From sequence record SRR31156797_1009: a stretch of DNA of 64,000 bases; one strand, written 5' to 3'. The notes below the pieces were generated by a model. The model had not been told where the DNA came from. It worked only from the letters and a program-made list of their open reading frames with translations, and ran no database searches. The position numbers and the translations under genes are program-made. This document shows positions 31,848 through 61,226 of the stretch, one piece after another (the stretch's first letter is position 1; every line of letters begins with the position of its first letter).

Positions 31848-31859
31848 GTGACACCCCGG

Positions 31860-34038: not shown

Positions 34039-34302
34039 TCACGCCGAGACTTCTTCCAGGACAACGCCGTCGCGGCGCATCTTTTCCATGTAGAAATCAG
34101 GCTGCTTCTTAAAATCGCCTGGACAGGCCGAACAGCAGAAATAAATACGCCTAGCCTGGTAATCTGTGAACAAATCGCGGCTGACATCAAAGCCCATGAC
34201 AGGACATTTTTTCTGGTTGCCGGGAGCCGCATGGGCGATGCCGGCGACGAGCATAAAAACAACCATGAAAATGAATGGAGTAAATATCCCGTCAATTCGC
34301 AT
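34039..34302 (-). CDS. Secreted YHS-domain protein
   Basis: Signal peptide; CPVMG...IYFCCSAC..DFKKQPDFY. Confidence 0.82.
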   Translation of the reverse strand: MRIDGIFTPFIFMVVFMLVAGIAHAAPGNQKKCPVMGFDVSRDLFTDYQARRIYFCCSACPGDFKKQPDFYMEKMRRDGVVLEEVSA

Positions 34303-34305
34303 AAT

Positions 34306-42490: not shown

Positions 42491-43117
42491 TTATGCATGT
42501 GGGGCATGTGGATTTAAAACCTGTATGCCATGCCCCCTTAACGCACCACTTGGACTTACATACCTATAAAGGGTGACCCGTGTTACCCCAAGCTCTTTAC
42601 AGAGATTCCTCACGCTAGTTGTCTTGTTTTTCATTGCAGCTTGCGCCATTTGTACTTGGGTCTTGTTTAGAGCGAATCGCCGTCCTCCCTTGCGACCGCG
42701 AGCGCGGGCGGCTTCAAGCCCTGCCATGGTTCGCTCTCTGATCAATTCACGCTCGAACTCGGCAAGGGCTGCGAAGATGCCAAAAATCAGCTTGCCACTT
42801 GCAGAGGTTGTGTCGATATCTGCCCCACGCCCTGTGAGGACTTTAAAGCCAATATCCTTCTCAGCAAGTTCTTGCACCACGCATACAAGGTGCTTGAGAT
42901 CTCGCCCTAGGCGATCAAGCTTCCAAATCAACAGAATGTCTCCTTGGCGTAGAGCTTTTAGGCAAGCGTCCAAACCTGGACGTTTGCCTTTCTTGCCGGA
43001 AGCCATGTCTTCATAAATGCGCTCAGCAGGAACTCCTGCCTTCAGCAAAGCATCTCGTTGGAGATCTAAATTTTGTGAGCCATCAGCTTTTGACACTCGT
43101 GCGTAACCAATTTTCAT
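42491..43117 (-). CDS. tnpR: Serine resolvase
   Basis: IGYARVSKADGSQ, WKLDRLGR, AEFERELIRERT, C-terminal HTH. Confidence 0.93.
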   Translation of the reverse strand: MKIGYARVSKADGSQNLDLQRDALLKAGVPAERIYEDMASGKKGKRPGLDACLKALRQGDILLIWKLDRLGRDLKHLVCVVQELAEKDIGFKVLTGRGADIDTTSASGKLIFGIFAALAEFERELIRERTMAGLEAARARGRKGGRRFALNKTQVQMAQAAMKNKTTSVRNLCKELGVTRVTLYRYVSPSGALRGHGIQVLNPHAPHA

Positions 43118-43253
43118 AGGCTGTTCACAAACCCTCGTTTGAGTTACATGTCCAATATAGTTCAGGTAGGTACGATATCCTGTACCTTATTCCGTATCAC
43201 AAACTATGTTAACAATACGTTATTGATTCTAGAAAAGATACAAGTGGGTTCAA
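43118..43253. other. Probable res site and divergent promoters
   Basis: Intergenic region between divergent tnpR and tnpA with imperfect palindromes; subsites not resolved. Confidence 0.5.
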
Positions 43254-46178: not shown

Positions 46179-46211
46179 CGTGCAACTTTGTCCGCTCTAT
46201 GGAGTGCCCCC
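46174..46211 (-). repeat. Right 38-bp inverted repeat
   Basis: Reverse complement GGGGGCACTCCATAGAGCGGACAAAGTTGCACGTTAAG; followed by TTATA. Confidence 0.9.
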
Positions 46212-46294
46212 TTATAAGGCATAGCTGCGCCCCGTCTGTTTACAAATAAAACTGAATGCAGATATTATTGTAGGGTCTCAACGAAGGAGTTGTC

Positions 46295-47296
46295 ATGAAT
46301 AAGATAGCGAAGCATGGGATCAAAATGTACGTCCTGATTTTTAGTATCGTCGCCATAGCAGGACTTCACTTCAGCGGCCTCCACGGCAGCCTCGGACTTC
46401 ATGGAGTCCATCGGGAACTTTTTTTCATCCCGATCCTCCTTGCTGCATTCTGGTTCGGCCTTAAGTCCGGCGTAGTGACAGCTATAATTGTGTCCGCTCT
46501 TTTTATCCTCGGAATGGTGGCAGACAGTGCCCACATGCCTGCCGCCCTCATGATTTCCCAGGTCGCGGTTTTCATCTTCTCAGCAGCCCTCCTCGGTTGG
46601 CTCTCCGACAACCAACGCAAGAAGACCCAGGAACTCATCAATGCCGAAAAGCTCGCCACTCTAGGCGAAACAGTCGGGGTCATCAGCTGGGAAGTCAAGG
46701 ATAATATTGACGCGCTAAAAAGGCTTTTCAATAAGAGCGACGGATTGGCAAAGGCTGAGCTTAATAAGGATTTCAGAGCAGAATTGGATACCATAGATTC
46801 GTTAAGCCGCTCAATGACCCAATATGCAGCCAAGGAAACCCTCAATCTATCAACTATCGACATAAACGATGCAGTTCTGGAGTTGGTAAAGCTATACAAA
46901 ATTCACTACCGAGAAAAAGGAATCAACCTCGAAGTAAGAAAAGACCTCAGTGGTTGCCCGACAAAGGTTTCCAAAAATTCTGTATTATGGGTGTTATCCA
47001 AGCTGCTCGATAACGCCAAGGACGCCTCCAAGGCAGGTGCCAGTGTATTTATTACAACTCGTAGACATGGTGATCACTGTACGCTGGATGTGGAAGATCA
47101 AGGTTCCGGCATAGCTGAAGAGCATGTAAACAAGCTTTTCACCCCCTTCTTTACCACCAAGGAGGGGGGGACGGGCATCAGCCTTGCTGCCTGCAAGAAG
47201 ACCCTAAAAGAATTGGGTGGTGATATCACAGCCCGTAGTGTCGTCGGGAAGGGGTCGGTATTTACAGTTACTATCCCACGAGAAATGGAAAAGTAA
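46295..47296 (+). CDS. Membrane histidine-kinase-like ATPase with degenerate H-box
   Basis: N-terminal TMs; HATPase N/G1/F/G2 boxes (LLDNAKDA, DQGSGI, FTPFFTTK, GGTG); ISWEVKDN where AHE(I/V)RNP is expected. Confidence 0.8.
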   Translation: MNKIAKHGIKMYVLIFSIVAIAGLHFSGLHGSLGLHGVHRELFFIPILLAAFWFGLKSGVVTAIIVSALFILGMVADSAHMPAALMISQVAVFIFSAALLGWLSDNQRKKTQELINAEKLATLGETVGVISWEVKDNIDALKRLFNKSDGLAKAELNKDFRAELDTIDSLSRSMTQYAAKETLNLSTIDINDAVLELVKLYKIHYREKGINLEVRKDLSGCPTKVSKNSVLWVLSKLLDNAKDASKAGASVFITTRRHGDHCTLDVEDQGSGIAEEHVNKLFTPFFTTKEGGTGISLAACKKTLKELGGDITARSVVGKGSVFTVTIPREMEK

Positions 47297-47312
47297 TCAA
47301 CCTTCAAGAAAC

Positions 47313-47343
47313 AAGAAAGGCCGTCCAATGAACGGCCTTTCTT
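47313..47343. terminator. Bidirectional terminator
   Basis: AAGAAAGGCCGT...ACGGCCTTTCTT between convergent genes. Confidence 0.75.
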
Positions 47344-47368
47344 AATTTAAGCAAAGAAAGCCCAGCTC

Positions 47369-47839
47369 TTAAGGCTTCTCATTCTGCAAAGAGTAGATGA
47401 TATAATTCACCAGCGCCCACCGTTCCTCAGGCGAGAATTCCGGAAAAGCAGGCATCTCCAAAGCATCCACTCCATTTTGAATGATCCAGTATTTTTCACC
47501 TGGCCCATACATCTCACTGTGCTTTTTGTCCCTAAAGCTAGCTATGGACAACTCCATATCCGAAATAAGCTCTCCCTTGCCATCTCCCTTTTCACCGTGG
47601 CACATGCTGCAATTCTCATTGAATAGAGCTTTGCCCTTCTCTATTGATGCAACATCAGGAGTAACAGGAGTCCTATCCATCACCTTGTACTCATTAGGGA
47701 TAGCTTTTTGAGTCCGCATCATCGCTGAAGCGTGCTTTGTAGGTTCTTCGTGGTTAAGCCCTTGGTGAGCAGCCACATGAACAGACACCCCCAATAAGAT
47801 CAAAATAACCATCACACACAGACGACACAGCTTATTCAT
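47369..47839 (-). CDS. Monoheme cytochrome c
   Basis: Signal peptide, CSMCHGEKGDGKG, MPAF, ERWALVNYI; GGAGG RBS before MNKLCR. Confidence 0.88.
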   Translation of the reverse strand: MNKLCRLCVMVILILLGVSVHVAAHQGLNHEEPTKHASAMMRTQKAIPNEYKVMDRTPVTPDVASIEKGKALFNENCSMCHGEKGDGKGELISDMELSIASFRDKKHSEMYGPGEKYWIIQNGVDALEMPAFPEFSPEERWALVNYIIYSLQNEKP

Positions 47840-47880
47840 ACAACCTCCAAAACATGAGACAGCCAATACCAAGCAATATG

Positions 47881-48055
47881 CAGAAACGTTGTCCCCTCCT
47901 TGAACTCAAGCAAGTTGGTTTGCTGCTTGAAGCTGTCAAAGAGGTGGTGATAATCGGGCAACACACCAGCCGGGCCACGGTAAGTTGAGCGGAACGCTCA
48001 TCAAGCTCTCACAGCTAGGATAAAGAAGACACCTTCACCTTCTCCTTGGTAAGAG
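47881..48055 (-). pseudogene. Decayed internal fragment of a RecD2-like helicase gene
   Basis: Colinear similarity to 52418-52655, e.g. CACACCAGCCGGGCCACGGT(A/T)AGTTGAG and AGACACCTTCACCTT; frameshifted with a ~57-bp deletion. Confidence 0.8.
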
Positions 48056-48154
48056 GAAGACAAAATTGATGCGAAAGTATAAATCCCAGCTCTATTTTTG
48101 CTGTTCAATACAACATCAAGGAAGAGCTGGAATTACAATGTATTCGACAGCTTT

Positions 48155-48808
48155 CTAAAGTAATTTTTCCTTGACGTTGTCTATACCAACCCGGTCGACG
48201 AAGCGAGCAGTACGCTCTCGTTTTTTCGCGTTGGAATTATAGTATTCCAAAAATTGCTTCGTTAATGCCAGCACACTGTCTTTATCCAGATCTTCAGCCA
48301 GAATATCACCAATGCGAGGACGACGGGCCGAACTTCCGCCTATAACCAAAGTCCAACCCGATTTCTTACCAAAAAGGCCAATGTCACGCACAAAGCTCTC
48401 ACCGCAGCATAGAGGACACCCAGACACCCCTATTTTGGCTTTGGCAGGAAGATCCAGGGAGGTAAAAAAAGCTTCCAACTCTATGCCAAGTCCCAGAGAG
48501 TCCTGCACTCCAAATTTACAAACTGCCGTACCAGGACAAGCTTGAACGTAATGCACACACAATTCAGTAGCTTTTCCTATGTCTAACCCCAAGTCAGACC
48601 AAATAGGGTCCACATCTTCACCTTTCATACCCACTAAGGCGAACCGTTGTCCCGAAGTGATTTTGATGACCGGGATCTCATATTTTCTGGCAACTCCAGC
48701 TATACGCTCCAAGTCATCTGGGGTCACAATTCCCACAGGAGTCCGAGGAACAATGGCATAAGTACATTTATCACGTTGTAAGATTGCACCTTTGGGAGTG
48801 TCGGTCAT
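48155..48808 (-). CDS. Intact element-borne homolog of the disrupted nitrite/sulfite-reductase-type siroheme/4Fe-4S protein (217 aa)
   Basis: KITSGQR, ACPGTAVC, GVSGCPLCC motifs; gap-free alignment to the rejoined host gene; AAGGAG RBS before MTDTPKG. Confidence 0.92.
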   Translation of the reverse strand: MTDTPKGAILQRDKCTYAIVPRTPVGIVTPDDLERIAGVARKYEIPVIKITSGQRFALVGMKGEDVDPIWSDLGLDIGKATELCVHYVQACPGTAVCKFGVQDSLGLGIELEAFFTSLDLPAKAKIGVSGCPLCCGESFVRDIGLFGKKSGWTLVIGGSSARRPRIGDILAEDLDKDSVLALTKQFLEYYNSNAKKRERTARFVDRVGIDNVKEKLL

Positions 48809-48860
48809 TGCGGATTTCTCCTTGGTATTTTTAAGATTCATTACCCTTACAGAATGCCAA

Positions 48861-49262
48861 TCAACGTCGCTCAGTAGGAGGCATGGGCTTTTCGAGATCG
48901 GCCTTTGTCAGATTTCTTGATGCAGCGTTGTAGGCCCATTTTACAAGTTGGGCGGCCTGAGTGGATACCATCAGCTTGAGTTTAGCATTTTCATCTTCAA
49001 GCGCACTAATTCGATCTTGCTTTTTTTTCATCTCTTGAGGTGAAAATGAAATCTTATGCCCTTGGGATTCGCTGTTATGATCTTTTTTAGCGTAATATGC
49101 ACTCTTGATATCGTCATATTTCTGAAGGGTTTGCCTAGAATACTTAATACCAATAGATCGAGCAGACTTTTCAACAATGTTATCCCATGTAATCTTGCCC
49201 GTTAGGTCATTGATAACAGAAACTATCGCTTTTATACGATCTGGAGTTAAACGCTCAGGCAT
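48861..49262 (-). CDS. Small recombinase-partner protein (GinD/TnpC-like)
   Basis: 133 aa, HTH-like GKITWDNI..YSRQTL plus coiled coil; overlaps the third recombinase stop. Confidence 0.7.
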   Translation of the reverse strand: MPERLTPDRIKAIVSVINDLTGKITWDNIVEKSARSIGIKYSRQTLQKYDDIKSAYYAKKDHNSESQGHKISFSPQEMKKKQDRISALEDENAKLKLMVSTQAAQLVKWAYNAASRNLTKADLEKPMPPTERR

Positions 49263-51298
49263 AGCTCACCTACCTTCAATAAAGGGAAAGAGCTGTCTTG
49301 CCCTTCTTCCAAGTATTCTTGCCCCCTTTCATAATGGGCAACTATAATTTGTGAAAAGTCTTTGCCAGGTATGAGTTTGACAAAACTATTATCTGGGATA
49401 TCAGGATTTTCATTAATTGCATTTAATCCCTTAAGAACTGACAAGACCTGTTTGTGATGTATCAGAGAAGGATCAATTCCGACTATGGGATGCGCCTCTT
49501 GGCAATCAGCAATTTCCTTCTCCATCTTATTTATCAACGGCAGCAACGATTGGGAGAACCGACTGTCTCCTTTCACAAAAAGAGAGTTGGAACATAGAAA
49601 ATGGTCACCAATCTTTGGACAGATTTGACCGTCACCTAATGTACAGAACCCAACATCAATGACGTTAACCATCTCATTAAGCTGTCGCTCTAGGTACTCT
49701 GCCAACAAAGCTGGCTGGTTATAAATTTCATTCGTAAAATTAGTATTGCTTGGAGAAGCATCGCTTTGATCATTTATGGTTAAGGCTTTCTCAGCCAGAA
49801 CGACCTTATCAGCATGAGAGTAAGCCTGATTGTGTCTTATGTCTTTTCGACCAGCAAAATAAGCACGAGTCTGCTGAGCAATTCCACCATATTCACTCAC
49901 CGTATCTTGATAATGACGGAAGTTATGCGTTGAAATCTTTATTGGACTACCATCCTCTTCAGTAAGTCCGTGTCTGGCAAAGATAGTATTAGCGTAAGAA
50001 GCTGATCCAAACAATCTACAAACCGTACTCATGCTAACAGGCTGGATCATGACATTCTCATATGCCTTAGTATAATCTTTGAACCAATGAAGAGGGAAGA
50101 CTAACAAGCAATCTGAGTATTTCAATCCAGATTCTTTATGAAAATACGGGAAGTTATCCGGTAACAACGACAAAACATATTTCTCAATGTCTTTAAATCG
50201 AACCCGGTAGCTATTTTTGTTTTTATAAATAGGTTCAATACCAAACCCTTTAAAAATCTTGTGGTAAATATGAGCCCTTCCACAATTCAACAATCCCTTC
50301 AAAGCGACATGGTCAATATACTCTTCACTTCTAAGATAACTATACTCTTGAGGGAGATACATTTCTCCAGGGTTGTCTTCGTACCATAGAGCAATTTCTC
50401 TTGCTTTTTCGGTAACGTTCAGAATTTTACCAAGCGCTTCTAGAGTAAGCTCCTTCCACCCTCTGGGGACAGGCTTAGTTAATGGTGTCCCACCTTTTGC
50501 GGGGAACCAACGCAAACCAATAGCTCCTTCTATGCCTTCATGATTATAAACCACACAGTCAGTGCGCATAGACAAAACTTCACTAATTCTACAAGGATTT
50601 GAGAGAAGTATAACCCCAATAGAGGAAATAACTTTACAGATTTGATCTTTAGGATCGTTATAAATCTCACCCAACGCATACAGTGAACGATCTGTGGGCA
50701 GCTTGTCTGACCGATGTTCTAAATAGGCTTTCCCCGGCTCACGACCCGGACTGTTCTGCCGCACAGATCGAACCCACCGCATGGGAGGAATCTTCAATAA
50801 AGAGTTATCATTCAGGAACTTGGAAAGGACTTCTAACTTAGCACAGACGCTTGCTGCATTGTTGTGACAATAATAATCAACTGCCAACCTTTGGGCTTCA
50901 TTTAGCACATTTATATCTATGTTAGTAACACACGGAACACTGTGTACATTTACCAAGGCTTGTCCAAGAGCTTTAAGAGCACCCATTTGTGAAGCTAAAT
51001 CTTTAACATGCTTCATCCCATAAGAGTACCGCAAATAGGCTTTAGCAAAATCAACGAATGGCTTTTCCATTTTTACCGGATTATCATCTCTTGAGTCATC
51101 TCCAAAACGATACCAATACTGATTTCCACTCTTCCTAGATCGAAGTTCAATAGTCTTCGAAATTGGCCACTTCACATCACCCCAATCCAGATTAGCGCCA
51201 AAGACGGTCAACTCATTCTTGGCCATTGCGATAAAAGCGTTAACGTTCTCAATCGCGTCTACCTCACGCTTAGGTTTAAAATGTATGATTTGCGCCAT
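49247..51298 (-). CDS. Tyrosine recombinase 3 (GinC-like, 683 aa)
   Basis: CRISEVL, WFPAKGG, THNFRH, AGRKD..HNQAYSH; start reset to MAQIIHFKPK behind GAGG. Confidence 0.85.
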   Translation of the reverse strand: MAQIIHFKPKREVDAIENVNAFIAMAKNELTVFGANLDWGDVKWPISKTIELRSRKSGNQYWYRFGDDSRDDNPVKMEKPFVDFAKAYLRYSYGMKHVKDLASQMGALKALGQALVNVHSVPCVTNIDINVLNEAQRLAVDYYCHNNAASVCAKLEVLSKFLNDNSLLKIPPMRWVRSVRQNSPGREPGKAYLEHRSDKLPTDRSLYALGEIYNDPKDQICKVISSIGVILLSNPCRISEVLSMRTDCVVYNHEGIEGAIGLRWFPAKGGTPLTKPVPRGWKELTLEALGKILNVTEKAREIALWYEDNPGEMYLPQEYSYLRSEEYIDHVALKGLLNCGRAHIYHKIFKGFGIEPIYKNKNSYRVRFKDIEKYVLSLLPDNFPYFHKESGLKYSDCLLVFPLHWFKDYTKAYENVMIQPVSMSTVCRLFGSASYANTIFARHGLTEEDGSPIKISTHNFRHYQDTVSEYGGIAQQTRAYFAGRKDIRHNQAYSHADKVVLAEKALTINDQSDASPSNTNFTNEIYNQPALLAEYLERQLNEMVNVIDVGFCTLGDGQICPKIGDHFLCSNSLFVKGDSRFSQSLLPLINKMEKEIADCQEAHPIVGIDPSLIHHKQVLSVLKGLNAINENPDIPDNSFVKLIPGKDFSQIIVAHYERGQEYLEEGQDSSFPLLKVGELCLSV

Positions 51299-51323
51299 AG
51301 TTTTCCTCGTTCTATTGCTCCAA

Positions 51324-52034
51324 TTAGTCCCCCAGTTCTGCCCACCATTGTTCGCCGTCTTCCATTGGCATGGCCAGTGCGGTCCATTTAGTTCCTGTTT
51401 CTTCATATTGCCCAATCTGGTGCATGTGGAAGTGCCCAAAGTACCAATGCTTCGGTTTATAGCGATGAAGGATTGTGTCCAAAATCTGGCGAGTCTTCTC
51501 ACTGTGCTTTGCAAGCCAAGGAGCAGAGGCATACCCTTTGGGGGGTGGGCCTTCACGCAGCTTGAAACTTTGAGGGGCAGTATGTGAGATTACAATATCG
51601 ATCTCGATGTCATCAGGAATTTTAGCGATATCTGCAGCAGAAGGGATTTCATTTTGAAACCAATCCAATCCTTCGATTCTTCTCCACTGATCGCCTGAAG
51701 AAGCTCCACCAAAGAACAAAATATTCTGACCATTGGGAAGCGCCAAAACTGATCCACGAGGCTGGTAGTAGACGTTAGGCAGGACTTCGGTATTTCCCGT
51801 AGCCGCTATCTTGGATAGAGAGTAATGGTCCTCATGGTTGCCATCGATCCAGCGGATAACAACACCTTCATTATGAAGAGAAGGGTTCTCAGGCGGCCAG
51901 CCGTGATCTGGCAAACGAGGCCAATAGCCAAAATCCCCAACCTGTATTATTTGATTGGGTTGTTGTGTTTCACAGAGCCAATTAAGGACCTGAAAATCAC
52001 CGTGGATATCGCCGCAGATCAGGATTTTTTTCAT
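51324..52034 (-). CDS. Calcineurin-like metallophosphoesterase
   Basis: GDIHGD, GDFG, DGNHE, SHTAP, FGHFH. Confidence 0.88.
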   Translation of the reverse strand: MKKILICGDIHGDFQVLNWLCETQQPNQIIQVGDFGYWPRLPDHGWPPENPSLHNEGVVIRWIDGNHEDHYSLSKIAATGNTEVLPNVYYQPRGSVLALPNGQNILFFGGASSGDQWRRIEGLDWFQNEIPSAADIAKIPDDIEIDIVISHTAPQSFKLREGPPPKGYASAPWLAKHSEKTRQILDTILHRYKPKHWYFGHFHMHQIGQYEETGTKWTALAMPMEDGEQWWAELGD

Positions 52035-52035
52035 T

Positions 52036-54168
52036 CTACCACCTAAGCCCTACATTGCGACAATCAGCCGCGAATTTCCGTTCTAAGGCCCGTTCAAACT
52101 CTTTTTTGTCACCCGTAAGCACGACTTGCTTTTCGGCCCTTGTAATGGCCGTATACAACCATGAGGGGTCGAGCAACCTAGTCTGGTAAATCGGGACAAT
52201 GACTCGCTTCACCTGAGAACCTTGGCACTTGTGGCAAGTAATCGCATAGGCCAAAGAGAGATCGATGATCTGCCTCGCGTCGAACCTGACGACTTTATCA
52301 TCAAGGTTTGCCGTAAGGTCATATTCGCCACGATCGACGTCCAAAATATGCCCCAGACTGCCGTTGTAGACTCCACGCTGGTAGTCGTTCTTAAGGTGAA
52401 TCACCGGCTCGCCTGGACAGAAGTATTGCCCCAAGCTGCCCTTGAGTTCGGGCAAGTTGTTTTGCTGCTTATACTTGTCATGGAACTGGCGATTGAGCTG
52501 CCCCACACCAGCCGGGCCACGGTTAGTTGAGGTAATGATCATCAAGTCCTCGAAGCCGCCAAAGTCGTTCACGACCTGTTCAATGATTGCCGGGATTGAT
52601 TCCAGTGAAGCCGGGATGAAGGAGACACCTTCACCTTTTCCCTGATACTGAGAAAAAGTGGGCATACGCCTATCGCGCAAAGCCTTTGCCACCAAGGGGA
52701 TGCCGCTGTCTGCGGCCTGTCGATAAATCTTGTTGAGCCTAACCGTGATAGAATCGTCCTTCACAAGCTCATGGAAAACAAGGCCGAAGCCAATTGGGGG
52801 AAGCTGTGCAGGATCACCCGACAGAAGCAACCGGGACTCTTTTTTCATATGCTTCATCAACGCATGAAAAGTAGCCAGATCAACCATACTGGCCTCATCA
52901 ATAACAACTAATGTCCTTTCGTTGATCTCAGCCAGGTCGTTCTCTTCTTCGAGTTCGGCCAAGGTACGGGTTAACGTCTTTGCCTGCAGGCCCGTGCTTT
53001 GACTCAGTTTCAATGCAGCTTTACCCGAAAGGGTTGCCATGAGGGCGTTGCCGCCAAGCCTGTGCCAGAGCCGTACGACGTAACGCAGGATCGTGGTCTT
53101 ACCAGTTCCTGCGCCGCCTACCAGACAAGAAAGAGGCGAGCGCAAAATCTGAAGCATGGCCTGAAACTGTTCCTCGTCGGGCCTGATGTGACCAGCACTA
53201 AGCGTTGTGAGTATGTTCCTGACGTTTTGCTCATCGACTTTGATCTGGCCATCGTCCTCAAGCTGTCGCAAAGCTCCGATAACAGATCGTTCCATGAAGG
53301 CTGATCCAGGCGGCATCCACTTGCCGTCACGGTGGAGGACTGCACCGAATTCAAGCCCGAGCTGTACGGCATCGCACACTAGCTTAGAATCATCCAATTT
53401 AGCCATTAGCAGTGCTTCCAGATCAAAGAGACCAACTGAGGTAGAACCGGACGCTAGAATATCTCTGACAGCAGAATCAACGGCCCCAAGAAGTCGTTTG
53501 TTTGAAGCCTGAGGTGCAGCCGATCCAATTTCAAAAAGCACCTTGAGACCCAACGCATCGCATTGTTCCCAGCTCATCATTGACGCCATACACCAAGGAT
53601 TGTTGCGGAGCCGATTCACAACATCTGTTCCAAATGTGGTGGAACAGATTTTCAAAAGCCGGGGAGAGTCTATCCCATAAGATTGGAACCATGCAGCTAA
53701 GTCGGATTCTGCTTCCAGCCGTTTCCATTCACGGCAGACTAGAGAAGCAAGCCGAATAGAGAGAAGAGGACGGCTGGGCGCAATCACTTGGGCTATTTCA
53801 GACACGCTTCCACTGGACAGAACATTGGGCAGATTGTTGCCCCACATATCCCACAAACGATTTGCTCGGGTCGGGCCCACACCCGGGCAAGTATTGGACA
53901 GGAAATTAATCAGAAGCTTGCCTGTGGGCTTCTGACGGTATGCGTATTCAGCCTCCATCTGATCACCCCACTTCGTGTGCTTGATCGGTCCGGATACTTC
54001 CCATGTTTCACCCAATGAGGGAACGCCCACAATACGCGCAGCAATGACTTTGACCTGGATTTGATCGCAGGCCCGTTCATCATTGAGAATTTTCCCAGCG
54101 AAGATAGTACCGTAAGCCTTCTGGCTGACTATGCGCTTAACCTGAATCTGCACTGTTACTCCGGCCAT
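52036..54168 (-). CDS. RecD2/TraA-like SF1B DNA helicase
   Basis: HhH (PGVGPTRA), GGAGTGKTT, IDEASMVD, GDPAQLPPIG, YAITCHKCQGS, YTAITRA. Confidence 0.9.
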   Translation of the reverse strand: MAGVTVQIQVKRIVSQKAYGTIFAGKILNDERACDQIQVKVIAARIVGVPSLGETWEVSGPIKHTKWGDQMEAEYAYRQKPTGKLLINFLSNTCPGVGPTRANRLWDMWGNNLPNVLSSGSVSEIAQVIAPSRPLLSIRLASLVCREWKRLEAESDLAAWFQSYGIDSPRLLKICSTTFGTDVVNRLRNNPWCMASMMSWEQCDALGLKVLFEIGSAAPQASNKRLLGAVDSAVRDILASGSTSVGLFDLEALLMAKLDDSKLVCDAVQLGLEFGAVLHRDGKWMPPGSAFMERSVIGALRQLEDDGQIKVDEQNVRNILTTLSAGHIRPDEEQFQAMLQILRSPLSCLVGGAGTGKTTILRYVVRLWHRLGGNALMATLSGKAALKLSQSTGLQAKTLTRTLAELEEENDLAEINERTLVVIDEASMVDLATFHALMKHMKKESRLLLSGDPAQLPPIGFGLVFHELVKDDSITVRLNKIYRQAADSGIPLVAKALRDRRMPTFSQYQGKGEGVSFIPASLESIPAIIEQVVNDFGGFEDLMIITSTNRGPAGVGQLNRQFHDKYKQQNNLPELKGSLGQYFCPGEPVIHLKNDYQRGVYNGSLGHILDVDRGEYDLTANLDDKVVRFDARQIIDLSLAYAITCHKCQGSQVKRVIVPIYQTRLLDPSWLYTAITRAEKQVVLTGDKKEFERALERKFAADCRNVGLRW

Positions 54169-54617
54169 TCGGTGCGGAGAGAAGTCCCAGTGGATTCGAT
54201 TTGCGCCAACCTTGAAAGAAGCATGGCATTCTCTTCGCGTAAGGATTCGATCTCAGCCTCTTTTTCTGCGAGAACGCGGGCAAGGTTGTTCTTTTCGGTT
54301 GTGGTCCTTGCTAGGCGATCTGCGGCGGCTTTGTCGCTTTGATCTGCGAGCACACGAGAGCCAATTGATTTGACCCCTTGGACCAAACACAGTGCATTTA
54401 CGGGAGTAGCTAGCTCTGGTTTGCGATAGAAATGTTGCTCCTGGCTCTGGCGTAGACCAATAGCCTTTGCAATGGCCCGCACATTAACCTTGCCATCAGG
54501 TGTGATTGGCAATGTGGGCTGGCGCAGACTTTCAGATTGGGCATCCCAAGACGCATCAAGCTGCTCGAGATACGGCTCAAGTTTGGCGAGAATTTCAGGA
54601 GTAATGTTTTTGGGCAT
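54156..54617 (-). CDS. Small HTH and coiled-coil protein (TnpC/GmtX-like)
   Basis: GKVNVRAIAKAIG HTH-like segment, C-terminal coiled coil; coupled to the helicase. Confidence 0.6.
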   Translation of the reverse strand: MPKNITPEILAKLEPYLEQLDASWDAQSESLRQPTLPITPDGKVNVRAIAKAIGLRQSQEQHFYRKPELATPVNALCLVQGVKSIGSRVLADQSDKAAADRLARTTTEKNNLARVLAEKEAEIESLREENAMLLSRLAQIESTGTSLRTEWPE

Positions 54618-54625
54618 ACGAGTCC

Positions 54626-56230
54626 TCAGAAAGAGTCAACCATGTCGTCTTCAAGGTCGAGTTCTACAACTTCACCCTGTTGTATTTTTATAATAACCCT
54701 CTCGATTGCATGAATGGTCAAATCAAAAGACATGGCTAAACTGGGTTGAATGGCCTGCCCTCTTTCTTCGAAGGCTCTCAAATGAAGATCGCGCTCTCGC
54801 TTCAGAATCTTCAAATGCTCTTCATGAGTTTCGATGTCATTCCAGGCATTGAAGGAAAGACAGGTGTAGCAACTAAAAGGAATACGGGAGAGATAAGTTT
54901 CTGGCTCTAAAGAGTCTGCTAAATAAACTCCGCATCCAGTAGGTTTCACGCACACCCCTGTTTCTTTGGAGAGGTCTGAGGTTCTAACGGGGGTGTATGT
55001 TTGCCTTGTGCCCACCAGATTAGGCTTATCAAAAACTTTGCCTTTAAATGAGTCTATCAGGGGGGCGTAGTATTGGGCTACCCCTTTCTCAATGATATCG
55101 GCCATTTCTTGCCCCAAACGAACATACGCTCGGCATGTGACTGTATTTGAATGGTCCAACATTTGAGCTATAATATTAGGCCCATACCCCTGCAAAGCCA
55201 ACGAAGTACCTAAATAGTACCGTGCTCTACGAGATGAAATGCTAAGCTGTTTTCCTGTCCTAGATGGAATATGAACTTTTCTTGAGGCGTGACATCTAAA
55301 ACGAGAATTAAGAGCTGTCACCAAGGGATGATATTTCAAAGGACCATTTTCATTTTTGTCCCACTTGGAGTAGACCAAAGGTAACTGGCTTAAATCATAA
55401 TTTTCATCATAATATAGCGAAGAATATTCATTTTTTACGGTCTCAATTCTTCTTTGAATCAAGAAAGCTAAGTCTGAAGTGACTGTTCTATCCCGAAATT
55501 CCACACGAGGTTCAACATGGCCTTGCTTATCTCTTGGGACAGAAAGGATATATTTCGAGACAACTCCATCAACAATAACTTGTTTAAAGTCACATACTTT
55601 TAACCACGAAATCTGCCTAGGTCTGCACCCAAGCAAGTGCATCAGCAAAAACATCAGACAGAATGAATCATCCACTTTTCCAGCAGCGTACAATTCAAAT
55701 ACGTCTTTAAAGAGGCTTTGATATTCTTGCACTGTGTATGGCCCTTTTTCAGGGTCACAGGTCATGACAGCCTGATAACCAACCTCTGTAAATTTTTTAC
55801 TCTTAACAAAAAAATAGACATCATCTTCAACACCATCTAGTTTCAATTCATAGAACTTTTCAACATAGGCCTTCAGTGATCGACAATGTGACTTACGTGA
55901 TTTGTCAAAAAAGTTGACAAGTCTTGAGAATGAGAATTGATTTATTGAGCTATCTGCATCTACACAATCACGAAAAAAACTCTCAACAGCCTTATGATAC
56001 ATAAAAGCTGTCGAGAGACTATTCACTTCCACAAAATGAATCGTAACCCTTTTTATATTCCGAAAGAAATTAGCTGTAGCCTTACTCTGAATATCATCAA
56101 AATAAAAATGCCGCCGGTAAGATCCATCTGAAAGCTCCCAATGGTTGGGGCTGGGATCAAACACAATCCCCTGAAGACTGATGGTTTCATTTGGAAGGGT
56201 GTACTCTATATTTGGAGCAACACTGCTCAT
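54626..56230 (-). CDS. Tyrosine recombinase 2 (GinB-like)
   Basis: LGCRPRQI, PRDKQ, SRRARYYLGT, LDHS, RAYV, C-terminal CYTC; ATGA overlap with recombinase 1. Confidence 0.85.
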   Translation of the reverse strand: MSSVAPNIEYTLPNETISLQGIVFDPSPNHWELSDGSYRRHFYFDDIQSKATANFFRNIKRVTIHFVEVNSLSTAFMYHKAVESFFRDCVDADSSINQFSFSRLVNFFDKSRKSHCRSLKAYVEKFYELKLDGVEDDVYFFVKSKKFTEVGYQAVMTCDPEKGPYTVQEYQSLFKDVFELYAAGKVDDSFCLMFLLMHLLGCRPRQISWLKVCDFKQVIVDGVVSKYILSVPRDKQGHVEPRVEFRDRTVTSDLAFLIQRRIETVKNEYSSLYYDENYDLSQLPLVYSKWDKNENGPLKYHPLVTALNSRFRCHASRKVHIPSRTGKQLSISSRRARYYLGTSLALQGYGPNIIAQMLDHSNTVTCRAYVRLGQEMADIIEKGVAQYYAPLIDSFKGKVFDKPNLVGTRQTYTPVRTSDLSKETGVCVKPTGCGVYLADSLEPETYLSRIPFSCYTCLSFNAWNDIETHEEHLKILKRERDLHLRAFEERGQAIQPSLAMSFDLTIHAIERVIIKIQQGEVVELDLEDDMVDSF

Positions 56231-57513
56231 GTAGGCCAATCCTCTAACATTTGTTCCTGCATCAGAACTGATATTTCATCTGTTTTTCTTTGGATGAATC
56301 TTTGATTATACTTTTCAGGCATAACAGAACTAACGCTCCACCCCATTGCTTCTCTTCGTATTTCACGAACATCATCTGCTGACACCCCAGAAGCATCAGC
56401 ATATTCAGAAAACCGCTCGTTCCACGCATGCCTAATCACATGCTGTGTCAAATCATTTGGCAATTGACTGTGCTTATCCCTCAAGGTCGTAAAAATCTTG
56501 CAAGCAGAGCTATAGGCCAGAGGGGTGCCTGTTCTTGAAACAAACAGATAAGGATGCTTCTTGGCTCCTCGAAGACGCCTTCGATATTTCAAATACAGTG
56601 GTAACAGTTTCACCCAAGAAGAGCCAAGAGCTAGTGAACGCTCCAAAGTTTTTACTTTCGGAGCTGGGATACGACTTTCATCAGGATCATCTGGCCTTCT
56701 GACAATATCAATTCTAGGGCGATCACCCATCAGATAGACATCTTCTAATTTCAAACTTAGAGATTCACCCATTCTCAGACCAAGCATCACACACATAGTG
56801 ATATAGAGCTGATTCCTGATCCTTACAAACTTGTTTTTCCAAGGGTTATTAACATTGGCAGACTCAACAAGATCGAGAATTATGTCCTGTACTTCCTTCT
56901 CAAAACCACGTGGAGGAGATAACCGACTTTGACTTCTTGCCATATGCCTCGGAATTCTGTGCCTTATCCAACCTATGACTCTATTTGTAGCTTCAACTCT
57001 ATTTTCATACTCAGGATTTGCTCGATCCAAATTTTTCATCAGCTCAAAACTCATCCATTGTAGATACTTAGCAATACTATCCAAACGCCTTGCTTGAGTT
57101 GAATGGTTTACAAAAATTTCACTCGAGTCACCCAGCTTCGGAGGCTGCTCACCTATTCGCACTATGCCGACGTCTTTGGGAGAAACTGTATTTGAAGCAT
57201 AAGTATATTCCGCTTTCAAACTCTTCATACGCAGTCGACAGACATAAACTAAACTATCGATCTCTCTAGACGACAACATTTCAGAACTTTCAAAACGCCT
57301 TTCAAGGTCAAAGCCACATATCTTTGTCCACTCATACAAGAACTTAATATTATTAAGCTTTATAGTTATTGTCGAAGAAGAATCTCTAGGACGACAAATA
57401 CTTGCCACATAGTACGCGGGCAAAAATGGAACCCCCCCATCTGGAGCCAGAAGAACAGGAAGACGCTCTCCGTCTAAACCAATATTTTCGACAACAGTAT
57501 ACGACATGATCAC
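56227..57513 (-). CDS. Tyrosine recombinase 1 (GinA-like)
   Basis: Full R-K-HxxR-W-Y set: GLRMGE, KVKT, HVIRH, MGW, EKY; N-terminal GERLPVL. Confidence 0.9.
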   Translation of the reverse strand: MIMSYTVVENIGLDGERLPVLLAPDGGVPFLPAYYVASICRPRDSSSTITIKLNNIKFLYEWTKICGFDLERRFESSEMLSSREIDSLVYVCRLRMKSLKAEYTYASNTVSPKDVGIVRIGEQPPKLGDSSEIFVNHSTQARRLDSIAKYLQWMSFELMKNLDRANPEYENRVEATNRVIGWIRHRIPRHMARSQSRLSPPRGFEKEVQDIILDLVESANVNNPWKNKFVRIRNQLYITMCVMLGLRMGESLSLKLEDVYLMGDRPRIDIVRRPDDPDESRIPAPKVKTLERSLALGSSWVKLLPLYLKYRRRLRGAKKHPYLFVSRTGTPLAYSSACKIFTTLRDKHSQLPNDLTQHVIRHAWNERFSEYADASGVSADDVREIRREAMGWSVSSVMPEKYNQRFIQRKTDEISVLMQEQMLEDWPT

Positions 57514-57563
57514 ACCATTTGTTTACAAAATATTTTATTACAGTTTACATGAAATCACAACTC

Positions 57564-57593
57564 AAAAAAAAAGATAGGGTGTCAATCCCTATC
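57564..57593 (-). terminator. Terminator inside the element end, upstream of recombinase 1
   Basis: Minus strand GATAGGG-ATTGACA-CCCTATC-TTTTTTTTT. Confidence 0.7.
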
Positions 57594-57653
57594 CTTCTAT
57601 TAAAAAAAGATAAAAGTCGTCTAAGTTTACATAGTAAAGTGCGGTGTAAAGCA

Positions 57654-57659
57654 ACAGCA
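57654..57659. repeat. Right att core / direct repeat ACAGCA
   Basis: Matches 27192-27197. Confidence 0.85.
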
Positions 57660-58064
57660 CATAGGGCAACCAGATACGCCAACTTTGAGTTTGGCAGGCA
57701 GTTCCTTACCTACAAACATCTCTTCGAGTTCCATACCAAGCCCCAAAGAATCACGGATACCGAGCTTGCAGACTTCAGTACCTGGACACGCCTGCACATA
57801 GTGCACACACAACCCCACAGCCGGCCCAATGTCCATCTTAAGATCTTCCCAGACTTCGTCCACCTGCTCTTCTTCAAGACCAACAAGAGCAATTCGCTGC
57901 CCCGATGTGATTTTCATAATCGGAATTTCAAATTTCCGACCAACCCGGGCCAAAGCCTCAAGGACATCTGGCGTGACCAATCCTACGGGCGTTCTGGGAA
58001 CAATGGCATAAGTTTTCTTGTCGCGTTGAAGTATTGCGCCTTTGGGTGTCTCTTTCTGAGCCAT
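57654..58064 (-). pseudogene. 5' half (MAQKETPKG...GVSGCPMCC, 137 aa) of the interrupted gene
   Basis: Homology to 48155-48808 stops right after CC; the frame runs 8 unrelated codons into the element and stops at 57627. Confidence 0.92.
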
Positions 58065-58092
58065 GACTATAAACTCCAAATATAATAATCAG

Positions 58093-58758
58093 TTATTCGC
58101 CAAAAATTACTTTTTTAATCACGTCCACACCGACACGCTCTGCAAATCGCGCAGTGCGTTCTTTAACCTTGGCGTTTTCCGCATAAAAATCAAGAGCCTT
58201 TCCGACAATCTCAAAGGCTTCGGCTTCAGTAACATCCTGCGCAAGGACATCTCCCTGACGAACACGTTTTCCCCCATTTCCACCAAAGGAAACGGTCCAG
58301 CCCGTCTTACGCCCAATCAATCCAATATCGCGAATCATGGACTCCGCGCAGCACATGGAACAGCCGGAGACACTGGACTTGAGCTTGGTAGGCAAAGAGT
58401 AATCCTTCAAAAACTCCTCCATCCTTGCAGCCAATCCCATGGAATCCTGCATTGCAAGCCTGCACCCGATCGTGCCCAAACAAGATTGGACCTTATGTTT
58501 GAATACATCACCGACCGGCCCCACCTTTTCCACGACATCCTTCAAGATATCTGCGGACACGCCATCAATCATGATACGCTGTCCTGCCGTAACACGAATT
58601 CCCGGCAACCCGTATTCTTCCACAACACGCTGAATGGCTGCCAACTGCATGGCAGAGACCTGCCCCTGACTCATCTGAGGCACCACAGTAAACGAGCCGT
58701 CACCTCGGGGTTTGACGGCTCGCATTGGGAGTTCTTTTATATATTCTTTAATATCCAT
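58093..58758 (-). CDS. Nitrite/sulfite-reductase-type siroheme/4Fe-4S protein (upstream paralog)
   Basis: RVTAGQR, SCLGTIGC, VSGCSMCCAES, RDIGLIG. Confidence 0.88.
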   Translation of the reverse strand: MDIKEYIKELPMRAVKPRGDGSFTVVPQMSQGQVSAMQLAAIQRVVEEYGLPGIRVTAGQRIMIDGVSADILKDVVEKVGPVGDVFKHKVQSCLGTIGCRLAMQDSMGLAARMEEFLKDYSLPTKLKSSVSGCSMCCAESMIRDIGLIGRKTGWTVSFGGNGGKRVRQGDVLAQDVTEAEAFEIVGKALDFYAENAKVKERTARFAERVGVDVIKKVIFGE

Positions 58759-58759
58759 T

Positions 58760-59077
58760 TCAAATAGGGGGAGCTATGGTTACAAGAACACGCATGTCGG
58801 TCGTGGCCCTCACGCCGTGGGGTTCTGCAATTTCCGACACCAGTATATCACCGGTATGAGCAGGCATGGTCGCGCCATCCGCTGCAAGAAATTCGCCTTC
58901 GCCTTCAAGAATCGTCAAAGTCAATTCCCCTTCCAGTTCATGAGAATGCACAGGAAGTTGCTGCCCGGCCCGAAAGTTGAAATTAATCACCTTCATGAAT
59001 TCTGATTCGTGCACCAAGAAATTGGAAAACGTCAAGTCCTTAAAACCATGCTCATTGAATAATTCAGTCTTCTTCAT
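58760..59077 (-). CDS. Cupin-domain protein
   Basis: GQQLPVHSH, ILEGEGEF, EPHGVRA; AAGGAG RBS. Confidence 0.85.
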   Translation of the reverse strand: MKKTELFNEHGFKDLTFSNFLVHESEFMKVINFNFRAGQQLPVHSHELEGELTLTILEGEGEFLAADGATMPAHTGDILVSEIAEPHGVRATTDMRVLVTIAPPI

Positions 59078-59092
59078 GAGATACACTCCTTG

Positions 59093-59881
59093 CTAAAATT
59101 CCAGAGGAACAGTTTCCAGAACGTTACCATTTCTACCGACTGTCAGTCGAACAGTATCGACCTTTTTCCCGGCACGCTTCACGGCTTCACGCAAAATTAC
59201 TGACATAGAGGAGCAACACGGCACTTCCATTTCCAAAACCGTGATGGACTTCAAATCGTTCTCAGTCAAAATGTCGGCCAACTTTTCCACGTACTCCATC
59301 TGATTATCAAATTTGGGACAACCCAAAACAACTACACGCCCGGCAACATATTCACTATGATAGGACGGCATGGCCACCGGTACACAGTCTGCTGTCAAAA
59401 GCAGGTCTGCACCTTTGAGAAACGGTGCAGTCGGCGGCACAAGACGCAACTGTACTGGCCAATGAGACAATGCAGAGCCACCAGCAGGTGACGCCATGGG
59501 GATATTGGCCTGCTCACAGGGTGACATGGTGTGCATGGCCGCACCGGGACAACCGCCCATAGGCTTGGGAGAACCGGCAGGCTTATCCAGACGCAAACTT
59601 TCCGGGGAAGGCATGTGATCCGGCACTTCACGCCCTTGTGCCTTCAAATGCTCCGTAACTGCTTCCGGGTTGAAGTCTTCAGCCTCACGGACTTCAACTT
59701 TGAGGGCACCAGTTGGGCAATCGCCCAGACAGGCGCCCAATCCATCGCAATAAATTTCCTTAACCAATCGGGCCTTGCCATCAACGATAGCCAATGCACC
59801 CTCTTCACAGGACGGGACACATTCACCACAACCGTTGCACAATTCCTCATCAATGGTGATCATCTTTCTTGTACTCAACAT
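59093..59881 (-). CDS. Fe-S cluster-binding protein (FrdX-like, Cys-rich C-terminal domain)
   Basis: CNGCGECVPSC, CDGLGACLGDCP, WPVQL, ADC, CPKFD, MEVPCC. Confidence 0.85.
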   Translation of the reverse strand: MLSTRKMITIDEELCNGCGECVPSCEEGALAIVDGKARLVKEIYCDGLGACLGDCPTGALKVEVREAEDFNPEAVTEHLKAQGREVPDHMPSPESLRLDKPAGSPKPMGGCPGAAMHTMSPCEQANIPMASPAGGSALSHWPVQLRLVPPTAPFLKGADLLLTADCVPVAMPSYHSEYVAGRVVVLGCPKFDNQMEYVEKLADILTENDLKSITVLEMEVPCCSSMSVILREAVKRAGKKVDTVRLTVGRNGNVLETVPLEF

Positions 59882-59909
59882 GATAATATCCTCTCTTTTT
59901 CTCTTGTAT

Positions 59910-61226
59910 TTACATTCGTGCCACGCCAAGAAATATGGCGTGTAGGGTGACAACCAAAACAATAAACAATGTTCTGGCATTCTCACTGGATAATCCCGGA
60001 AAACTATATCCTATCTGCTTATGTGCGCAGGCAGACACACAATCACCGCACAGAGTACAGGAAAGGGCCGGACGTCCCAATTCCATCCTGCTTTCATCCA
60101 GCGCATTGTAGCGACACCTCGTGTAACAGGCCCCACACTTGGTACAATCTGAATCAATACGGATACGCCACGGTGATACTTTACCAATAATGTTAGCAAC
60201 CAGTCCCATGGGACAAAACGTGGTACAATGAGTCATCATGCCAGCCTTACGCGAAACAAATGCCATTATTCCCACGCCAACCAGGCCGAAAAGAACAGCG
60301 AATAAGACGGCCGAAGTCCCCGGCATTCCCATAAACCGCAAAATTAATGCTGTAGCAACTGTCAAAAGTAAGGTTGCCCCACGTCCGACAATGCTCAAAC
60401 GCTTCAGGACATCACTGTGCGCAGGACGTGGCCCAAGCCGACTCATGGCGTCATCCCATGCACCAATATAACAAAGATGACTACACCACGCCGGACCGAC
60501 CAAAAAGATCGTGACAGAGAACAAGATAAGCATAAAGAACCCACCGCCTCTGAACACAGGCCCACCAAGAATCAAGGCCGGAACCGGCAAATGAAGATCC
60601 CCGGTCATGAGCATCTGTTCCATGCCCAGCAGTCCCAGGCTCAATTGCAGAAAAAACAGTGCTGAAAACAATCCCCATATGCGTGGTCGAAGCGAATGAT
60701 GCCCGCGAGGTTGCATCATGCGCCCACCAATCCACTGAGCATACACACCCAGAGCAAAAATCTCTGTCCATCCCCATCCGGGCAGATAACGGTCAGCCAA
60801 CAATAGAGGGAATGGAGCCTTGGTTCGAGCCAGAAACAACCCCAAAATCGTCAAAGTAAAGATGGCCCCTCGTGCTACGGACTTCTCAGAAGCAACATAG
60901 AAATAATCCTTGGCGCGCTGACTCAACATGATCATCAAAGCAAAACCGTCAAACACGATAACACCCGCCATTATGGCGGTCAGTCGCTTCCATGGCAGAT
61001 CAAACGCCTGCCGAAAACTGATAAAATTCACAGTGGCGTCTGCCCAGATAAATCCACCCCACAAAAGAGCGGCAACGACACCCCAGCGAACCCACGCCTG
61101 ACGAGTAAACATAAATCCGGCCAAAATGACAAAAGAAACCATCAGGCCAAACTCACCCTGTCTGAGCGAATGAGCTGCCAGCAAAAGCAAGGCGAGCAAA
61201 GGTATGATCCAAAAAAACTTCTTCAC
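59910..61226 (-). CDS. Polytopic membrane 4Fe-4S protein (NapH/MauN-like C-terminus)
   Basis: Multiple TMs; WCSHLC, HCTTFCP, CTKCGACYTRC, CTLCGDCVSAC; GTG start behind GGAG. Confidence 0.82.
   Translation of the reverse strand: MKKFFWIIPLLALLLLAAHSLRQGEFGLMVSFVILAGFMFTRQAWVRWGVVAALLWGGFIWADATVNFISFRQAFDLPWKRLTAIMAGVIVFDGFALMIMLSQRAKDYFYVASEKSVARGAIFTLTILGLFLARTKAPFPLLLADRYLPGWGWTEIFALGVYAQWIGGRMMQPRGHHSLRPRIWGLFSALFFLQLSLGLLGMEQMLMTGDLHLPVPALILGGPVFRGGGFFMLILFSVTIFLVGPAWCSHLCYIGAWDDAMSRLGPRPAHSDVLKRLSIVGRGATLLLTVATALILRFMGMPGTSAVLFAVLFGLVGVGIMAFVSRKAGMMTHCTTFCPMGLVANIIGKVSPWRIRIDSDCTKCGACYTRCRYNALDESRMELGRPALSCTLCGDCVSACAHKQIGYSFPGLSSENARTLFIVLVVTLHAIFLGVARM

Follow-up and report, generated by a model that had tools for sequence, protein, structure and literature searches.

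A conserved gene pair for a small coiled-coil protein and a RecD2-like helicase embedded in the tyrosine-recombinase operon of a GInt-type genomic island

We analyzed a 64,000-nt stretch of DNA (sequence record SRR31156797_1009, hereafter the window), which carries a 30,456-bp genomic island at positions 27198-57653. The island belongs to the known GInt kind, and a two-gene module is embedded in its recombinase operon. Between ginB and ginC, on the minus strand, lie the genes of a 153-aa small protein (54156-54617, hereafter the partner) and a 710-aa RecD2-like superfamily 1B (SF1B) helicase (52036-54168). The helicase gene is found directly downstream of the partner gene in 23 of 23 other loci, and 22 of these loci lie beside or inside multi-tyrosine-recombinase gene sets. 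We regard it as somewhat probable that the pair is a portable mobility accessory of multi-tyrosine-recombinase elements, in which the partner would serve as an adaptor that recruits the 5'-3' helicase to the recombinase-nicked or excised island. The literature searched contained no description of the pair; the supplements of the bioRxiv preprint on gamma-mobile-trio (GMT) islands, of the paper on strand-biased circularizing integrative elements (SE) and of the E. coli defense-island work lay outside that search.

Eight co-directional open reading frames (ORFs) run from 57513 down to 48155 on the minus strand in the order ginA, ginB, partner, helicase, metallophosphoesterase, ginC, ginD and a NIR_SIR homologue, with junctions of -13, +8, -13, +1, +28, -16 and +19 bp. 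An earlier note on this DNA had proposed a single minus-strand run with gaps or overlaps of at most 52 bp; the arrangement is as proposed and tighter, as no gap or overlap exceeds 28 bp. GinA (56227-57513, 428 aa) is a tyrosine recombinase with a PF00589 (Phage_integrase) match at E 1.4e-11, and it is 41-56% identical to the product of the first gene of three related elements, L029-L031. The second recombinase, GinB (54626-56239, 537 aa), matches NF041502 ('site-specific integrase') over residues 24-517 at 245.9 bits, below the cut-off of 350, and gives a weak PF00589 match (E 0.0047). GinC (49247-51295), a recombinase-related third protein, has 682 aa when counted from the ATG at 51295, which follows GAGGAA and was taken as the start; the longest ORF extends to 51556 and overlaps the phosphoesterase gene. 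Pfam and NCBIfam profile searches with GinC, integrase hidden Markov models (HMMs) included, gave no match. GinD (48861-49262, 133 aa) is a small helix-turn-helix (HTH)/coiled-coil protein that falls in the GinD family alignment. In total, 3,294 bp with three genes separate ginB from ginC. A consensus scan of the operon strand from 57513 to 48861 showed no strong terminator; the weak sites have stems of 5-7 pairs and are mostly intragenic. Site counts were near the shuffle expectation for promoter-like (16 against 16.8) and terminator-like sites (17 against 10.9). Strong hairpins were seen only beyond the operon, one upstream of ginA (57598-57568) and the other at 47344-47312.

The 23 other loci with the pair come from several searches. 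A one-genome-per-species scan gave 16 partner loci, and in 16 of 16 a helicase homologue was located directly downstream by tblastn. Among 401 genomes of the host's order the partner was present in three, giving L029 and L031 (both in one genome), L030 and L032. Two more loci, L042 and L044, came to light via ginC and carry a divergent small protein and helicase after ginD. One of 72,556 plasmids has a partner homologue, which is found in a GMT element (L047) beside a gene annotated as 'RecD-like helicase'. Neither the viral contig scan nor a set of 50,697 phage records yielded a partner homologue. A search among longer proteins found no fused partner-helicase protein, which we take as weak evidence. 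The earlier note had grouped the small protein, the helicase and the phosphoesterase into one module; the first two do keep company in 23 of 23 loci, whereas the third is present in none of them.

The recombinase sets next to the pair belong to families with no sequence relationship to one another: GInt-like sets with an NF041502-type ginB, two unnamed A-B-C-D families and GMT. BlastP comparison of the window's Gin proteins with the two unnamed families found nothing at E<=1e-3; at least one member ORF of each unnamed family matches Phage_integrase, and the other members are tied to the family by collinear tblastn matches. GMT membership was assigned by HMM matches to GmtY and GmtZ. In the window and in L029, L030 and L031 the order is ginA-ginB-[pair]-ginC-ginD, and the short contig of L009 shows [pair]-ginC before it ends. 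The pair follows ginC directly in L017 and L020 (ginA-ginB-ginC-[pair]) and follows ginD in L042 and L044 (ginA-ginB-ginC-ginD-[pair]). Both unnamed families have the order A-B-C-D-[pair], the one in L010, L011, L014 and L032 and the other in L012, L018, L019, L021, L022 and L023. The GMT loci read GmtY-GmtZ-267 aa protein-[pair] in L013, GmtY-GmtZ-[pair] up to the contig end in L024, and recombinase-VPA1269 family-[pair]-GmtX-RecA (by RefSeq annotation) in the plasmid locus L047. Two loci are degenerate. L015 (10453-16947) retains two integrase-type ORFs and has insertion sequence (IS) insertions, one of which, of IS21 type, splits the helicase gene. In L016 (8207-9558), the one locus lacking a recombinase set, only IS genes are found upstream and the recombinases were lost to IS elements. 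The pair is thus located within the operon in two element families, between ginB and ginC (window, L029-L031) and between gmtZ and gmtX (L047).

A tree of the helicases does not recover the recombinase classes as monophyletic: at least two changes per class are required by the starred branches, and the two GMT-linked helicases fall in different starred clades. The module therefore moves between recombinase systems. Across the four complete elements built like the window's (window, L029-L031) the partner is 77-84% and the helicase 77-82% identical, compared with 33-58% for GinA-D. A database homologue of the partner, P0012, is 82% identical. L029 and L031 co-reside in one genome, yet with only 78% identity between their helicases they give no indication of gene conversion. 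L047 (NZ_CP041717.1, 253783-263012, an Acidiphilium plasmid) has a GMT-type operon, with the pair embedded in it, directly followed by recA and a toxin-antitoxin-like DUF1778/GNAT pair. A hairpin downstream of the helicase gene was considered as a constant feature of the pair and rejected: of 12 loci checked, three (L023, L017 and L013) have a hairpin whose arms reach 12 nt or more with at least 85% complementarity, five have a weak or short inverted repeat and four have none.

The partner has no Pfam family at E<=0.01. Its homologues form 63 clusters, and a search of 1.84 billion proteins gave 198 representatives at E<=0.001, of which nearly all have 140-180 aa. The AlphaFold (AF2) model of the partner, with a predicted local distance difference test (pLDDT) score of 87.7, consists of an N-terminal helix, an HTH-like helical domain (residues 46-80) and a long coiled-coil helix of 55 residues (88-142) followed by a conserved C-terminal tail. 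A search with the entire model gave no Foldseek match at E<=0.001, and VIA-align aligned the coiled coil only (Z about 6). The 'HTH' label is a weak one, drawn from the helix pattern and from weak HTH-family matches in relatives. The partner may be a distant relative of GinD-type (DUF6262-like) proteins, as several sequence comparisons suggest. The divergent L044 partner scores 33.1 bits against DUF6262 (PF19776; cut-off 29), and hhalign of this DUF6262 member with the partner family gives 94.8%. Weak DUF6262 matches were also found with the L042 and L047 partners, several GinD proteins and class-II 'D' proteins. The GinD family aligned to the partner family in hhalign at 43.5% (E 2.4e-4, collinear over 111 columns), which is suggestive only. 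A protein-language-model atlas placed VPA1267/DUF6262 clusters at 0.90-0.93, a lead and not an alignment. In L017 and L020 the partner gene stands directly after ginC, that is, in the place of ginD. The identification of the small protein as GmtX itself was rejected, as no GmtX HMM match was found at E<=0.01. The earlier note had described a GmtX-type protein followed by a RecD-like helicase in GMT islands; the pair is indeed located inside or behind GMT operons (L047, L024 and L013), but its small protein is not GmtX.

The helicase matches TIGR01448 (RecD2) at 351.9 bits, with residues 48-699 aligned to model positions 35-701 of 713. It shows the full RecD2 domain order (AAA_30 at E 3.6e-41, UvrD_C_2, and weak HHH_RecD2 and SH3_13 matches). 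Its best solved relative is Deinococcus radiodurans RecD2 (PDB 3e1s, E 2.2e-37), and Walker A, Walker B and the later helicase motifs are invariant in 17 sequences. It also matches the TraA_Ti helicase domain (165.7 bits) and other relaxase-helicases. The RecD2 label given earlier is supported by domain order, motifs and the 3e1s relative, but the score falls short of the TIGR01448 equivalog cut-off of 500 bits. The helicase thus shares the SF1B core and RecD2 domain order with RecD2 (3e1s) and with the RecD-like domains of TraI/TraA. It differs from RecD2 (3e1s) in lying below the equivalog cut-off, in being always paired with the small partner and in its location on mobile elements. A decayed relic of a second RecD2-like helicase gene (47899-48057, minus strand) is found between the NIR_SIR homologue and a cytochrome c gene. 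This relic of ~160 bp corresponds to aa 506-576, contains stops and a deletion, and shows 75-82% DNA identity to 52440-52647 (tblastn E 7e-05). It is the trace of a previous module or element in the cargo and points to further turnover of such modules.

A two-chain model supports binding of the partner to the helicase. The predicted complex scored 0.68 in each of three runs, against 0.02 for the best of three controls; 51 of 78 solved complexes attain the mark applied to such scores, as do 2 of 108 mismatched pairs. The partner has pLDDT of at least 76 in the complex, and at least 92% of contacts are common to the runs. The complex model made no use of the alignments supplied. In the predicted interface, the last 14 residues of the partner and the end of its coiled coil lie on helicase residues 122-292. 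The modeled contacts include the invariant partner residue G144 and the invariant helicase residues G180, N190, G228 and G288.

The metallophosphoesterase (51324-52034, minus strand, 236 aa) is a calcineurin-like protein with a PF00149 score of 47.1 bits (cut-off 21.5), and its metal ligands D9, H11, D34, N66, H151, H201 and H203 are invariant in 18 sequences. The earlier note had called it an Mre11-fold enzyme; no Mre11/SbcD family model matched at E<=0.01, PdeM being the only match at 15.5 bits against a cut-off of 150; a sequence search of the PDB gave only weak Dbr1 matches (E about 0.0014-0.0019). It matches the phage family phrog_1649 (E 1.7e-25), and relatives with less than 60% identity are found in 315 phage records (27-31% in the ten listed). 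A closer database homologue, P0067, is 68% identical; its longest contig has the same length, 80,324, as that of the partner homologue P0012, so a second island with all three genes may exist. None of the other 23 pair loci carries the phosphoesterase gene, and in L009 and L029-L031 the helicase gene runs straight into ginC. Conversely, among 80 metagenomic loci with phosphoesterase homologues, of which the best is 42% identical, none carries the partner or gin genes and one has a weak helicase match. A search of four relatives found one phosphoesterase homologue, at 3.74 Mb in a genome whose islands are at about 1.39 and 2.03 Mb. We read the phosphoesterase gene as a later, lineage-specific insertion into the operon, of a type common in phages, that stands outside the conserved module.

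The base composition of the inserted genes differs from that of the gin genes. GC content is 0.415 for ginA, 0.405 for ginB, 0.407 for ginC and 0.410 for ginD, and 0.515, 0.514 and 0.475 for the partner, helicase and phosphoesterase genes; the earlier impression by eye that the HTH and helicase genes are GC-richer than the flanking recombinases (0.515/0.514 against 0.405-0.415) was correct. GC at third codon positions (GC3) is 0.35-0.37 in the gin genes, 0.49 in the partner gene and 0.55 in the helicase gene. A sliding GC profile shows a step at both borders of the three inserted genes. The same step is found in all four full elements of the window's type, while the host flank has a GC of 0.47-0.49 at the window and about 0.65-0.71 at L029 and L031; it was not seen in the distant partner-helicase loci. 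Recent capture as the source of the step was rejected, since the step recurs in L029-L031 at very different host GC. Because it is retained whatever the GC of the host, the step is an old property of the lineage. It is compatible with one insertion of a foreign pair, in an ancestor, between ginB and ginC.

In its overall layout the island agrees with the GInt description (PMC5385486). [quoted passage not shown] The window differs from this description in two respects: its operon is broken by 3.3 kb between ginB and ginC, a break that recurs without the phosphoesterase in L029-L031, and the island sits mid-gene and brings a full-length, probable replacement copy of that gene as the first item of its cargo. 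The third gene of a contiguous four-gene set located behind ssb on a Pseudomonas plasmid encodes a protein to which GinC shows 32.5% identity over 97% of the GinC length, and a Klebsiella plasmid carries a similar ssb-type four-gene set. The island does not qualify as a GMT element: GinA scores 25.8 bits against GmtY (cut-off 340), and no GmtZ or GmtX match was found. GMT islands nevertheless resemble it: their tyrosine-recombinase system consists of several proteins, the third of which is small and DNA-binding (bioRxiv 10.1101/2023.03.28.534373), and the same partner-helicase pair is located within or behind the operons of L047, L024 and L013. The main text of the GMT preprint contains neither 'helicase' nor 'RecD', its supplements being outside the search; in the GInt paper no helicase appears in the main text, and one supplement names 'helicase' only as a target gene (PMC5385486). 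The sets of SE (intA-tfp-intB-srap; PMC10214605) and Tn554 (tnpABC) are likewise four- and three-gene tyrosine-recombinase sets with a small protein of Srap/GinD/TnpC type. The likeness of SE to the window is one of gene layout and description, and the SE description, as far as seen in PMC10214605, differs in including no helicase.

The borders of the island were mapped with the nearest related genome, G001. A DNA search of 31 related genomes gave matches only to the right flank, from window position 57654 onward. Locus L001 of G001 has an uninterrupted NIR_SIR gene of 224 aa followed by a TrkA-type gene. BlastN aligned positions 1-2948 of this empty site to window 60601-57654 (96.3% identity) and 2943-4448 to 27197-25692 (95.5%), with a 6-bp overlap. 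Two NIR_SIR genes stand in tandem at this site, and the island interrupts the second one in mid-frame, at the CPMCC motif. The 6-bp core TGCTGT is common to attL, attR and attB, and the flanks are imperfect. The attL junction is at 57648-57660 (minus strand), with the host sequence ending at 57654. The 5' remnant of the chromosomal target gene (57627-58079, minus strand) is a frame of 150 aa cut at the CPMCC motif; it shows 96% identity to G001 and, over 136 aa, 71% identity to the island-borne copy. The other part of the split gene lies to the left of the island's 3' end, at about 26950-27197. The last 185 bp of the island (27198-27382, minus strand, GC 0.26) form the AT-rich 3' end with attR. 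The full-length, island-borne NIR_SIR homologue (48155-48841, minus strand, 228 aa; PF01077 and PF03460) opens the cargo 19 bp after ginD. In its C-terminal part it departs from the G001 gene, so the whole gene is island DNA; it is probably a built-in replacement for the split target gene.

Inside the left end of the island, a terminator-like hairpin with a T run was found by the consensus scan at 57568-57598 (minus strand), and promoter-like sites at 57560-57532 and 57525-57496 stand between it and ginA. The hairpin could be an insulator against read-through from the host gene, or a recombinase site. GC-rich hairpins are also located just upstream of ginA in L029 (4189-4219), L042 (10689-10725) and L044 (5280-5305); the hairpin is flanked by a T run in the window and in L042 (A on the listed strand).

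The cargo after ginD comprises ~21 kb with the NIR_SIR replacement copy first. The region 27425-47872 encodes RND efflux proteins, a sigma-54 two-component system, a SpoIIE phosphatase, Tn3-family proteins and cytochrome c. Cus/Czc-like RND efflux genes at 27897-35712 encode a 1316-aa AcrB-family protein, an outer-membrane factor and a membrane-fusion protein with a heavy-metal-binding domain; they are probably the adaptive cargo of the island. Nested within the cargo, at 42491-46178, are genes for a resolvase and a transposase of the Tn3 family, and beside them is a histidine-kinase ORF (46295-47296) in which an ATPase domain was the sole domain detected. A perfect 18-bp inverted repeat with a 5-nt loop (27383-27423) follows the last cargo ORF, at the inner edge of the AT-rich 3' end. 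Neither a relaxase nor a coupling protein nor an oriT-like feature was seen in the island.

Contigs of four public runs (X1-X4) were compared with window positions 44000-60000; these are assembled contigs only, which cannot show circles, and no joints were listed among them. Run X1 contains the compared stretch without any difference and may be its source. In run X2, one contig is identical over 44000-56076 and a second (56047-60000) is identical up to 57653 and then shows 241 differences, of which those listed start at 57654. Runs X3 and X4, from another study, contain pieces of the island, and in X3 the stretch 50968-51990 across the phosphoesterase gene shows no difference. The same island at the same site in run X2, next to a diverged flank that starts at the border, indicates recent horizontal movement of the island into a diverged host.

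The mechanism we propose would begin with dimerization of the partner through its coiled coil. Its N-terminal domain would bind element DNA and its conserved C-terminal tail would hold the helicase, which could then unwind the island 5'-3' from a strand break made by the recombinases. Such unwinding may support replicative copy-out, or the replication or maintenance of the excised circle. We infer DNA binding by the partner, the unwinding substrate and the step at which unwinding takes place. In ICEBs1, a small helicase accessory of the element (HelP) acts with NicK and PcrA and lets the helicase unwind the nicked, excised element for rolling-circle replication. That system uses a host SF1A helicase and an HUH relaxase, whereas the window has an element-encoded SF1B helicase and tyrosine recombinases as the would-be nickers; we know of no sequence relationship between the two sets of proteins. 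A copy-out route that needs unwinding and replication has been proposed for SE, in which single-strand exchange is followed by removal of the covalently bound integrase and then by replication (PMC10214605), and the GInt paper raises replicative excision (PMC5385486).

Several findings weigh against this proposal. The four gin genes alone gave integration and excision of a synthetic mini-GInt (PMC5385486). Three of the ten GInt-like (ginC-bearing) elements compared, the window's and nine from the 401 genomes of the host's order, have a contiguous ginABCD and lack the pair (L043, L045 and L046), and the canonical ssb-inserted sets on the Pseudomonas and Klebsiella plasmids are also contiguous and without a helicase. 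Since the gin genes suffice for a mini-GInt and some GInts do without the pair, it is an accessory and not a requirement of core recombination. The GC3 step (0.35-0.37 against 0.49-0.55) indicates a history different from that of the gin genes. The N-terminal domain of the partner (pLDDT 89.7) has no significant fold match (best Foldseek E 2.5, best VIA Z 4.8), and the window's own partner has no DUF6262 match at E<=1. The complex score is the model's own confidence and not a measurement. Finally, the helicase matches several PADLOC helicase models, such as typeIV_RecD at 195 bits.

These PADLOC matches, which include PDC-S68 and RecD_like, are also what a role in defense or counter-defense would lead one to cite: the pair, or all three genes, would be an anti-phage or anti-plasmid system occupying a slot beside the recombinases. 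The phosphoesterase weakly matches PDC-S10 (E 6e-4), genes for HsdM, DUF6079 and KAP NTPase are found near the pair in other loci, and both GInts and GMT islands are known carriers of defense genes (GMT: bioRxiv 10.1101/2023.03.28.534373). However, the models hit by the helicase are generic helicase models and the partner has no PADLOC match. The pair is always associated with recombinase operons except in the IS-flanked remnant L016, and it is intra-operonic in two element families, whereas true cargo differs between loci. We therefore consider a defense function unlikely. An aid to transfer, which we judge rather unlikely, would have the helicase act like the RecD-like domain of TraI/TraA so that one strand of the island would pass through the pore of a co-resident conjugation system, a tyrosine recombinase making the nick. 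The TraA_Ti and other relaxase-helicase matches are in line with this idea, as is the identical island in the diverged host of run X2, and the route of GInts between cells is called unclear in the literature. The TraA/TraI matches, however, span only the generic SF1B core of a protein whose overall architecture is that of RecD2 (TIGR01448 over residues 48-699), and the island lacks a visible relaxase, coupling protein or oriT-like feature.

The earlier note had left two explanations standing, a DNA-processing accessory formed by helicase and phosphoesterase or a hybrid of two recombinase systems. The first is supported for the small protein and helicase, a conserved pair tied to multi-recombinase operons, but not for the phosphoesterase, which is unlinked to them elsewhere. 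A unit of all three genes, in which helicase and calcineurin-fold phosphoesterase would process DNA ends or adducts, for example by stripping bound recombinase so that copy-out replication can prime, could draw on the 1 bp between the helicase stop and the phosphoesterase start, the intact metal ligands, the removal of covalently linked integrase that the SE model requires before replication (PMC10214605) and the unchanged island with its phosphoesterase gene in run X3 of another study. Against it stand the absence of the phosphoesterase from 23 other pair loci, the 80 metagenomic homologue loci with no partner or gin gene and a single weak helicase match, the sole homologue lying about 1.7 Mb or more from either island in the genome that has two, the relatives in 315 phage records and the missing Mre11/SbcD family match; such a unit is improbable. 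As for a hybrid, ginA-ginB would come from one element and ginC-ginD plus the helicase genes from another. The compositional step at both borders of the inserted genes and the sharing of the pair with GMT and other systems could be read that way, but all four Gin proteins are collinear with single contiguous sets, and ginA/B and ginC/D have the same GC (0.41) and have diverged to a similar degree among the four elements, which makes a hybrid most improbable.

The portable mobility accessory that we favor would bear on how these elements leave the chromosome. Whether GInt, SE, GMT and Tn554-type elements exit by copy-out is unsettled in the accounts available (PMC5385486, PMC10214605), and a conserved element-encoded helicase with a dedicated adaptor, common to several unrelated recombinase sets, offers a concrete handle on the pathway. 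Through the pair, GInt-like and GMT systems are connected by a common accessory and by a common class of small DNA-binding proteins (DUF6262/VPA1267-like). It is possible, as a more speculative extension, that GInt, GMT and their unnamed relatives use a helicase-dependent transposition route, in which a GinD-like adaptor would load the 5'-3' SF1B helicase after single-strand exchange and the island would be peeled or copied out, with the phosphoesterase clearing bound recombinase in the present island. If true, this route would be mechanistically convergent with those of the relaxase-helicases and of Helitron Rep-Hel. GInt transfer between cells has been called unclear, and the transfer route is of practical interest, as the elements carry metal resistance here and defense, virulence and drug-resistance genes elsewhere.

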